Below are positions 4,264 to 7,286 of a stretch of 64,000 nucleotides of DNA, piece after piece. The DNA is from Octopus sinensis (taxonomy: Eukaryota). A program made the position numbers and the translations under genes. Within the stretch, counting starts at the first letter, position 1. Every line of letters starts with the position of its first letter. The notes under the pieces were generated by a model that made no database searches, had not been told where the DNA came from, and was given only the letters and a program-made list of their open reading frames with translations. The DNA lies in assembly GCF_006345805.1 (NCBI RefSeq), contig NC_042999.1, positions 44,330,001 to 44,394,000 on the forward strand. The letters run 5' to 3'.

Positions 4264-5405
4264 GTAGGTGTTCTATATTTCATTTCTTGGAGTGATCTTG
4301 AATGTTGTGTGTTAATTGTTGGCATTACTCATAATTACCTTTCTTTCATTGACATTATATGCATACATGGCTATATTTTATAATGTATATATGCTTTGCA
4401 GCTATGTAATTTTGGGTTCATCCCACTGCGCAACATTGTGGCTGAGAGCCTTTTTTCTTTTATTTACCATATGTGGTCTCAGGCCCATCATGAAGCAATG
4501 TATGTAGATGACATTCCATGTCCCATATCCATAGGTTGCAGCCTGTCCTGGTTTTAAAATGTGGACAGTGCTATGCATCCATGAACCCACATCTGGCTTA
4601 CGTGGGCGTATTGGTGCAGGGTTGATCCTAACCTAGACGCCAACCCCAGTTGGTGAGTTGCAAAAGGCACTGGAACCTGCCAGACTTCAGCTGAGCAAGC
4701 CCAAGAGGCACATAAACATGATCGTGATAGCATAGTTTTTGATTGTGGTTGAATATTGAACCCAGTAGTTAGCGATTAACAATGGTTCAAAATAGTATTC
4801 CTCTGCACAGAGCAGTAGCCTGTTCATCTCCAGAAGAAGCATCCAGCTGTAGCACTTCCCCAGGGTGAGCTTCAAAGTTCCATCATGTACCACCAACCTG
4901 CATGGACTCCAACTTTTAATGACACTTGGATGTCATATGAAGTCTGGACCGCTCTCAAAGGGACATTGCATGAAATTACAGCGCTTTACCCAATTGAACT
5001 CAGGCTTTCGGTGTTGTTAGCTTACCCAAGAACCAATTTGGTATTATTGCATTTTTCTAATAAAACTCCTACCATTGGTTTAAGCCCTCTTACCACAATT
5101 TTTAATAGACCATCTTCTACTTTAGTTCTGAGTTGACCAGTGTATTATATGTAGAATCAAACTGAAACTATGGAAATCTCCCCCTCTTTTTATTTAATCA
5201 CTTCTTTTTTTTACTCTTACACTTGTTTTTCTTGGAATTTTGTTCACCTTTTCTTAATTTTTTTCCCTTTTCCCAAAGATGTTGTTTACATTTCTTGTTC
5301 ACACTTTGGCTAGTCACTGTACTTTTGAAGAACTTAATAAAAAAAAATGATACTTGTAAACAAGTAAAGGTTGATGACAGGAAGATCATCTGGTTGTAAA
5401 GTACC

Positions 5406-5594
5406 TATTTCTTTATTACCCACAAGGGGACAAACAAGGACAGACATAGGTATTAAGTCGATTACATCGACCCCAGTGCGTAACTGGTACTTAATTTATC
5501 GACCCCGAAAGGATGAAAGGCAAAGTCGACCTCGGCGGAATTTGAACTCACAACGTAACGCCAGACGAAATATGGCTACGCATTTCGCCGCCTT
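5406..5594 (-). mobile_element. SINE family B body with A-box region deleted, fused 3' of tRNA-Leu
   Basis: Same family as 6929-7111 and 33267-33499; about 29 bp between two ggcga microrepeats is missing from the head. Confidence 0.85.
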
Positions 5595-5607
5595 ATGAAT
5601 TATATTG

Positions 5608-5689
5608 TGGCAGCAGTGAGATTCGAACCCACGCCTCCGAAGAGACTGGTGCCTAAAACCAGCGCCTTAGACCACTCGGCCACGCTACC
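5608..5689 (-). tRNA. tRNA-Leu-TAG: tRNA-Leu(UAG), 82 nt, intronic and antisense in ubiquilin; probably retroposed
   Basis: GGTAGCGTGGCCGAGTGGTCTAAGGCGCTGGTTTTAGGCACCAGTCTCTTCGGAGGCGTGGGTTCGAATCTCACTGCTGCCA: full cloverleaf, CTGGT/ACCAG anticodon stem, TAG anticodon, long variable arm, A and B boxes intact. Confidence 0.95.
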
Positions 5690-6259
5690 ATCTGGTTGTA
5701 AAGTACCACCTCAAAAGAGTTCCTGTCCAATGAATACTAACATTGAAGGAAATGAATGTACTATGCTCTTTGCTGCTTTCTTTTCCTTTGTTTTTTGTTC
5801 ATCTTCAATTTCTTGGAATAAATGGAATTTGTCTCTTGATGGAGCTCACCTTTGAATTTTTTAGCAGAGACAGCTTTATTCTTTTCTACTCTAGGCACAA
5901 GGTCCAAAATTTTTGGGGAGGGAGGGAACCAGTCAATTACATCGACCCCAGTATGCAACTGGTACTCAATTTATTGTTACTGAAAGGATGAAAGGTAAAA
6001 TGACACCAACATCAGCCATGATTATGATTTCACTTAAAAAAAACCACCTCATCTCATCTAGGTTGTCCCATTGGGTGCCCCTTTTTTAGGGTTTTCGGTT
6101 GTACATTTATAGGAGTCACAGGGCGCTGCTCCATGTGATCCTGCAGTTTCCATTTTACCAAACAAAACTTTCTCACTCGCTGCCTTATCCTGCCTTCCTT
6201 TATCTTGTTCATTCTTGCTTTTTTTTTTTTTGTTACATTTTATATATCTCTGTTTCTAG

Positions 6260-6344
6260 GTTCAACCTCCTGATCAGCGCTTTGGACCTCAATTGGAACA
6301 GCTTGCAGCAATGGGATTTGTGGATCGAGAAGCTAATATTAGAG
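6260..6344 (+). CDS. UBQLN: Ubiquilin exon, UBA domain N-half
   Basis: ttctAG|VQPPDQRFGPQLEQLAAMGFVDREANIR|GTagtg; MGF loop of the UBA domain; phase 0 to 1. Confidence 0.95.
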
Positions 6345-6928
6345 GTAGTGTTTCTAAGTGTACTTCTGTTAGCTGTGTTGCAAAAAGTATATAACTGCAT
6401 GACTTTTAGTTTGGGTTCTGAAATTTCTAGATGGCTAACTAAATTCGAAGGTTAATGTAAATCTAAGTTAACCTAGTTTTCCAAATTCAAATACCGGTGT
6501 GGATTTGGTCCCTTCATTTATTATTTAAACTTAATTTGTATTTATATTGATTTTTTTTGACTAAATGGTGCAGTGTTTATTTTTCAATAAGTTTGATATC
6601 AATATCACAGAGCAAGTTCACTACTCAGCAGATTGCCATTTATCCAAGTTTTTCATTGTCTACTCTGTGAGGTGTCACATTCTGAGACCTTGTCTCAATT
6701 CGATGAAAGTGGGTGGGAATTGCTCTTAAGCAAATGAATACATAGATATGACTCTGTATTTTTTCTTATTAAGGACAATGGCAAAGCAGAAGTTTTAGTA
6801 AGGCCAGACATGTTACACTATAGTTGAGTTGTTTCTGCTTTTCCTTCGTTCAGCTTCATCAGGGAGGGTGTGGCTCTATAGTTTGGGTATACAGACAGTA
6901 CAGCTGGAGATCAGTTATATTGATTATA

Positions 6929-7111
6929 TACTTCTTTACTACCCACAAGGGGCTAAACACAGAGGGGACAAACAAGGACAGACAAAGGGATTAAATCGAT
7001 TACATCGATCCCAGTGCGTAACTGGTACTTGAACTCAGAACGTAACGGCAGACGAAATACGGCTACACATTTCGCCCGGCGTGCTACTGTTTCTGCCAGC
7101 TCGCCGCCTTC
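6929..7111 (-). mobile_element. SINE family B copy with 21-bp TSD
   Basis: Direct repeat agatcagttatattgattata at 6908-6928 and 7112-7132. Confidence 0.88.
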
Positions 7112-7224
7112 AGATCAGTTATATTGATTATAACCTCCCCTCTCTTAGTTTTGTCAGTATTAGATATCATTGTTTGTTTTTGTTGGTTGATATTTAATAT
7201 TCTTTTTTTTTTCTTCTTCTTCAG

Positions 7225-7286
7225 CTTTGACCGCTACCCTGGGTGATGTGAATGCTGCCATTGACAGGCTTTTACAACAGAGATGA
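7225..7286 (+). CDS. UBQLN: Ubiquilin last coding exon, UBA C-half and stop
   Basis: Long pyrimidine tract ttcAG|(A)LTATLGDVNAAIDRLLQQR-TGA; GD.NAAI.RLL is the ubiquilin C-terminus. Confidence 0.95.

Follow-up and report, generated by a model that had tools for sequence, protein, structure and literature searches.

Does a tRNA gene that lies end to end with a SINE inside one pair of direct repeats mark the birth of a new SINE family? The question is raised by a unit on the minus strand of a 64,000-nucleotide stretch of Octopus sinensis DNA (the window, by which we mean that whole stretch), for which the original prediction was that a tRNA-Leu gene had been read through into a SINE crippled by loss of its A-box region, and that the joint transcript had been retroposed to give a new composite SINE. 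Our best reading is that the unit is raw material for SINE head replacement and not a born family, and its value lies in the class of insertions that it exposed.

A tRNA copy and a SINE within one target-site duplication

The structure itself is real: a tRNA-Leu(UAG), a trailer and a SINE lie within a single target-site duplication (Table 1). Around the unit the longest repeat has 19 nt (5387-5405 and 5689-5707), made up of 18 nt and a one-nucleotide overlap with G1 of the tRNA. Here the sequence bears out what had been predicted: the direct repeat brackets one minus-strand unit that starts at G1, 13 nt (5607-5595) separate the tRNA from the SINE, 29 bp of the SINE are lost, its 3' end falls at 5406, and an ordinary SINE copy with its own duplication is visible nearby in the window. 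There are two occurrences of the 18-mer in the window; of 251 fetched loci 4 contain it, each of them the window site, and it is not the 5' flank of other Leu genes among those fetched; the duplication also lies outside the tRNA, contrary to what a SINE landing beside a resident tRNA would leave. That tRNA and SINE were retrotransposed together, in one event and with the tRNA still carrying its 3' trailer, is supported.

ARAGORN calls one tRNA gene in the window, and the sole Rfam match there is the same minus-strand tRNA-Leu(UAG) at 5608-5689 (52.3 bits). By sequence, an internal Pol III promoter (A and B box) is present in the tRNA head, and a Pol III transcript of the unit would end at the downstream T9 run, at ~345 nt. 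As predicted, neither trailer nor SINE body holds a T4 run; the only one in the unit lies in the anticodon arm of the tRNA and is common to genomic Leu(UAG) genes. The claim of an unmutated tRNA promoter stood for the two boxes but not for the molecule around them: compared with genomic Leu(UAG) genes, the copy carries two C>T changes, C62T (5619) and C66T (5615), with A58 (5623) unchanged. Both leave G-U in place of a G-C pair, so that the T stem and the acceptor stem are weaker, and the minimum-energy fold of the copy is not a cloverleaf, whereas that of the source gene is.

The SINE retains its native 5' end and has two deletions, one of 29 bp that removes the A-box region between GGCGA repeats (at 5590/5589) and one of 15 bp in the tail between CCCC repeats (near 5429). 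The three bases at the junction were likely added without a template. GGTA, with which the duplication begins, is also the continuation of the SINE family past its 3' end; since many duplications in this family begin with GGTA, the SINE's tandem continuation, the duplication in the window is of the kind that this family normally leaves.

The unit appears to lie antisense within an intron. Two exon-like stretches downstream of it (6260-6345 and 7224-7286) give weak UBA/CUE matches below the Pfam cut-offs and are presumably the end of a ubiquilin-like host gene. A ribozyme at the shared GGCGG start of the partners was considered by eye, with the tRNA alone matching Rfam in the window, and a scan for bacterial promoters, which are irrelevant to Pol III, gave chance-level matches.

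Table 1. Parts of the insertion unit, listed in the direction of the unit
Feature	Position	Strand	Remark
5' copy of target-site duplication	5690..5707	-	18 nt; 19 with the G1 overlap at 5689
tRNA-Leu(UAG) copy, G1 to A73, without CCA	5608..5689	-	ARAGORN, Rfam
A box and B box of the tRNA-Leu(UAG) copy	5682-5672; 5629-5620	-	both intact
Pre-tRNA 3' trailer	5598..5607	-	ends in two T of the source gene's T5 terminator
Junction bases CAT	5595..5597	-	fit neither terminator nor clearly SINE; last T may be the SINE's first base
SINE copy, native 5' end to usual 3' end	5406..5594	-	two microhomology deletions
3' copy of target-site duplication	5387..5405	-	opens with bases of the SINE's 3' continuation, like other copies of the family
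First long T run (T9) downstream of unit	5339..5347	-	sequence

A single copy whose trailer points to a gene elsewhere

A composite SINE family would have many dispersed copies, and here there is one copy in 2.72 Gb. The exact 23-nt junction occurs once in the genome, in the window (control, 0), and in a DNA search of the genome the whole query was matched by the window locus only, among the 40 of 143 candidates that were scored. The assembly yielded no source locus with tRNA and SINE adjacent and no duplication. The window copy has left no daughters in the assembly and is a dead-end example; the predicted SINE birth is not supported.

A search with the trailer pattern returned eight matches (one in the control): the window locus, one ordinary gene and six other chimeras. 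The gene (L003/L038, G000:C18:24417559) lies on contig C18, separate from the window contig, and consists of a 6-nt leader, the tRNA, the trailer, a T5 run and then a T7-8 terminator, with no SINE behind. The trailer in the window agrees with L003 at 9 of 10 positions and with three sister chimeras (L035, L036, L037) at all 10, and its end falls inside the gene's T5. Another locus, L004, has leader and distal trailer in common with L003, which ties the trailer family to this gene, but carries a third trailer variant; given that variant and the one-base mismatch to L003, the window trailer likely represents an older state of the gene or an unassembled paralog. Read-through from the tRNA gene into the SINE, as had been proposed, does not sit with a probable source gene that has T5 at the very junction and no SINE downstream.

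Among the six other loci with this trailer, the partner is a second SINE head at three and an unknown sequence at one; the others have short tails, of two kinds. The tRNA part begins at the leader in two of the six, precisely at position 59 in three, and at ~59-61 in the last.

For the left flank of the window unit (5050-5450), contigs from two runs match without differences and reach 18-20 nt into the SINE tail; the site is therefore filled in those two runs, and no empty allele was seen in them. In a more distant organism the contig ends at 5341, ~45 nt before the site, and one raw-read run gave a single read. This comparison covers 4 of 24 runs, and the best of them may be the window's own source and so not independent.

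Loss of the A box is incidental

The original prediction also had the tRNA gene reading into a SINE that was already crippled. The A-box-deleted head is found in 33 copies genome-wide (control, 0) against 33,553 exact intact heads, or ~0.1% of SINE heads, and the deletion thus recurs in 32 copies besides that in the window. The thirty deleted copies that were fetched vary in tail and in diagnostic bases, and many lie within duplications of their own; leaving the window copy aside, a called tRNA is found in none of the remaining 29. Sister fusions to the window's SINE keep the A box, as does L115, a near twin of the window unit that joins Leu(AAG) to the same SINE subfamily. Loss of the A box is a recurrent, incidental microhomology deletion.

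Internal deletions are frequent in copies of this SINE, several of them between short repeats (window 5406-5594 and 6930-7111; L047, L049, L063, L066, L067), and the neighbouring copy at 6930-7111 lacks ~50 bp. The SINE often continues head to tail, its ~184-nt body restarting at GGTATTTCG (L004, L008, L017, L021, L025, L045, L046). Named octopus SINEs are OK, OR1 and OR2/CORE, with OR2 cited as a CORE-SINE.

A genome-wide class of pre-tRNA/retroposon chimeras

Collapsing 150 rows gave ~125 distinct chimera loci of many isotypes, the window included, with 0-3 control matches per targeted search; the patterns were exact, which makes the figure a lower bound, and a few members are decayed or have unknown partners. 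Before this count 28 loci were dropped: 19 LTR primer-binding sites, 8 chance or non-tRNA matches (L070, L091, L110, L112, L114, L119, L170, L214) and 1 source gene. The 19 had been candidates because they start at A59, and were set aside because CCA follows (17/30 in one search, 2/28 in that for Leu(CAA/CAG)); the last 15 nt of tRNA-Leu plus CCA we take, by the 18-nt rule, to be likely primer-binding sites of LTR retroelements (L071-L074, L077-L080, L087, L089, L090, L092, L093, L095-L098, L227, L228).

The Leu(UAG/AAG) search, which was blind to 5' extent, gave 21 matches against 1 in the control, with 17 chimeras and 4 dropped as chance. The searches for Leu(CAA/CAG) (28 matches, 26 chimeras) and Glu (37 matches, 36 chimeras) both had empty controls, and that for Ser was small (3 matches, 1 control). 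A generic pattern of T arm, trailer, T run and partner gave 54 matches and 1 in the control; 53 were tRNA-derived, and ARAGORN finds Glu, Asp, His, Gly, Arg, Ser and Leu among them, with presumably a few further isotypes.

Each junction appears to have its own history. Combinations of trailer and 3' end are all distinct among the 53 generic-pattern loci compared, and a single pair in the 125 (L226 and L251) has the same trailer and partner junction, with differing 5' flanks. The trailers of several Leu chimeras match, exactly or within 1-2 bases, those of T-run-ending genes with no partner directly behind, among the 100 of 164 rows listed for one gene search. The longest T run of the trailer is at least 3 in 111 of the 125 loci, a proportion that is partly built into the patterns. 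Of 19 fusions to the window's SINE, 3 were dropped and 16 had a recognisable 3' end; a duplication of at least 7 nt brackets tRNA and SINE in 11 of the 16, compared with 10 of 240 mismatched pairs, and 5 of the 16 are without one. Partner patterns required a [A/T]GGCG junction, so partner 5' ends are unevenly sampled.

The commonest partner (30/53) is a tail module, seen as two related modules of 50-60 nt (L043:602, L116:2182, L118, L120). By eye these form two hairpins, with compensating changes in the second, and start at AA(A/T)GGCGG like the SINE head; one of the two also occurs alone in microsatellites. One Glu/SINE chimera (L212, G000:C24:10077772) lies within an unusually long duplication of ~50 bp and adjoins another SINE tail. 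Full-length tRNA copies in chimeras are called as genes by ARAGORN at L002, L004, L104, L109, L115, L148 and others.

5' ends of the captured tRNAs

The prediction that all copies would start at G1 did not survive comparison with the sister chimeras, many of which, when full-length, keep their 5' leaders. Among the Leu(UAG/AAG) chimeras (n=17), 7 have A59 itself as their first base, 2 begin no more than two bases away, 2 are intermediate and 6 are full-length or nearly so. A peak at A59 was predicted beforehand for Leu(CAA/CAG), and of those 26 chimeras 14 start at A59, 2 at 58, 5 at 62-61 (some of which look like changed A59 starts) and 5 are long. Two of the three Ser chimeras start at 58/59. 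Exact A59 starts are thus found in 21 of 43 Leu chimeras versus 2 of 36 for Glu (Fisher p=1.6e-5). The 5' ends of the Glu chimeras (L186-L223) cluster ~49-53 nt and 60 nt from the tRNA 3' end, for which other modifications, or microhomology with TA repeats, are possible causes.

Methylation of A58 (m1A58) both stops reverse transcriptases and causes them to miscode, and in human cells m1A58 is high on 40 of 46 tRNAs, with a high signal for Leu and low levels for Asp(GTC) and Glu(CTC) (as reported in PMC5066629); these are human levels, not those of this animal, and the Glu copies here are mostly of the TTC form. A preprint describes m1A58 already on human pre-tRNAs that carry leader and trailer (10.64898/2026.05.17.725798). 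On this comparison, the points at which the chimeras are cut off likely record m1A58 on the tRNAs. A58 substitutions in read-through copies (L085, L116, L188, L229) are few and not significant, and thus suggestive only; misincorporation as proof of m1A was set aside, since it concerns 1 Glu copy and, in the unbiased sets, 2 of 13 Leu copies that read through, which is too few.

Three A59-start chimeras (L101, G000:C3:100899114; L103, G000:C5:102637557; L239, G000:C12:4677107) have their own trailer and partner inverted upstream, making a palindrome centred on the 15-nt tRNA piece. From their sequence, these inversions look like stalled cDNA folded back on itself.

Proposed mechanism and alternatives

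The chimeras display co-insertion, unlinked sources, a junction at the terminator and RNA-shaped 5' ends. We consider it probable that the window unit is a chimeric insertion, present as a single copy, in which a LINE reverse transcriptase reached the end of the SINE RNA and then jumped to the oligo-U 3' end of a pre-tRNA transcribed from a gene at another locus. Target-primed reverse transcription would start at the SINE 3' end on the short GGTA match; at the 5' end of the SINE RNA the enzyme would add a few untemplated bases and jump, end to end, to a nuclear pre-tRNA ending in U's, which it would copy until it met the leader, G1 or a block, the block for Leu and Ser usually being methylated A58. 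In the window copy it would have read through to G1, which fits a template that was 5'-matured and 3'-unprocessed or unmethylated at A58, and the A-box deletion of the SINE would be a separate microhomology event.

Several of these steps have precedents. The R2 reverse transcriptase is described as jumping between separate templates, with non-templated addition required (PMC8857657; 10.1101/2021.04.30.442027), and the oligo-U ends of pre-tRNA are reported to be bound by La in the nucleus (PMC10275265). For RTE-type elements the start of the duplication has been linked to the 3' repeats of the retroposon (PMC6007223), although the LINE at work here may be of another type; for O. vulgaris, RTE, Dong-R4, CR1 and L1-Tx1 families are listed as recently active (PMC13282606).

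The main rival places the joining before the copying: the 3' end of a pre-tRNA, or a trailer fragment cleaved in the T loop, would be ligated to SINE RNA and the product retrotransposed, as in the RtcB route proposed for U6/L1. This would yield an equal sense structure in one duplication, and the A59 starts could be the 5' ends of T-loop-cleaved fragments rather than polymerase stops; both routes are given for U6/L1 by Law and Burns (10.1101/2025.02.02.635956), and the sequence by itself cannot tell a template jump from ligation before copying. We nevertheless regard ligation as unlikely, as partners are often joined at their native 5' ends, many junctions carry extra bases, and the fold-back inversions at A59 copies suggest a stalled cDNA. 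The ends would also be wrong for RtcB, whose substrates are a 2',3'-cyclic phosphate and a 5'-OH: a pre-tRNA has U-OH at its 3' end, and a SINE RNA made by Pol III has a triphosphate at its 5' end.

An event at the DNA level, either insertion of a SINE or site-specific element into the terminator of a resident tRNA gene or repair that copied a stretch of tRNA-gene DNA into the 5' junction, strikes us as very unlikely, although the last bases of the target resemble the source gene leader (AACC) and could have aided annealing. The duplication lies outside the tRNA, the source genes are intact elsewhere, and a DNA template would leave it unexplained that the captured pieces end at landmarks of the transcript (leader, G1, A59, terminator) in a way that depends on isotype. 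The model in which a terminator-less tRNA gene reads into an A-box-less SINE, the composite being a new SINE family, is largely refuted, and we give it hardly any weight. It does account for the one duplication, the start at G1, the intact tRNA boxes and a trailer and SINE devoid of T4, and with deleted heads so rare, deletion and capture in one copy are a mildly unlikely coincidence on any other account. Against it stand the lack of a source locus and of a second copy in the assembly, a source gene that terminates at the junction, the recurrence of the same trailer in six other fusions, the 29 other fetched A-box-deleted SINE copies without a called tRNA, and sister fusions in which the A box persists.

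Relationship to known chimeras

A jump from SINE RNA onto pre-tRNA would bring the octopus chimeras close to those of U6 and U6atac with L1, L2 and RTE elements and the SINEs Mon-1 and AnolisSINE2, in which an oligo-U Pol III RNA likewise lies 5' of a retroposon, in sense and within one duplication (PMC4476161). There too, each copy is described as independent, and stringent LINE clades and their SINEs also take part. The features of U6/LINE-type chimeras are found here, namely sense orientation in one duplication, an oligo-U junction, and unlinked parts with independent junctions. Unlike in that system, what is captured here is pre-tRNA with its trailer, and of many isotypes; among the snRNAs studied there, template switching may be restricted to U6 and U6atac, and a modification-linked stop, as we propose, is not described for U6 chimeras in the available text (PMC4476161).

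In human tRNA/LINE-1 chimeras a tRNA is also co-inserted with a retroposon in one duplication, but the 21 loci reported are mostly antisense halves ascribed to twin priming, whereas those described here are in sense, have the trailer to the terminator and number >100 (10.1101/2025.02.02.635956). Tailless tRNA retropseudogenes are similarly attributed to nuclear, sometimes unprocessed tRNAs copied by LINE machinery; they differ in being 3'-truncated, primed on the tRNA itself and partnerless (PMC5322556). A switch of reverse transcriptase from SINE RNA to tRNA, giving a chimera within a duplication, has been proposed in general terms, as here, by Kojima 2018 (PMC5786205) and for SINEU (PMC4494074). 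The same mechanism was proposed for PittSINE, derived from TguSINE1 with its head replaced by a switch to tRNA-Asp (PMC5729268); the founding event there was deduced from a family already amplified and, for want of an assembly, was described as untestable, whereas here unamplified intermediates can be counted, and the old SINE head is kept or only partly deleted instead of being replaced.

In the literature covered, mostly outside subscription journals, we found no report of sense, trailer-bearing pre-tRNA/SINE chimeras in such numbers, nor of genomic retrocopies with an m1A58 footprint; this is weak evidence of novelty.

Implications for SINE founding and tRNA gene dispersal

The gain or replacement of SINE heads is usually put down to a template switch onto tRNA, normally inferred afterwards from amplified families. 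Here a single genome offers more than 100 intermediates that are independent and have not been amplified, so that the rate, the RNA substrate (trailer-bearing pre-tRNA and not mature tRNA) and the failure modes become measurable. Since most captures of Leu and Ser retain just 15 nt and neither promoter box, m1A58 may limit which tRNAs found SINEs. We lean towards seeing the genome as a fossil library of hundreds of pre-tRNA captures, that is, of unamplified SINE founding events, whose stops (A59 for Leu and Ser, read-through for Glu) read out m1A58 on nuclear pre-tRNA of the germ line; if this is true, assemblies by themselves would suffice to map the state of the modification and to compare it across time.

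Capture of pre-tRNA is also a route by which intact tRNA genes disperse. Retrocopies make up part of the dispersed tRNA genes counted in this genome, and its tRNA annotation should be read with the caution that some of the genes are such copies. Among the Leu genes, Leu(UAG) and Leu(AAG) alternate in nearly identical arrays on two small contigs, G000:C518 and C8813, which may represent two haplotypes of a single cluster.
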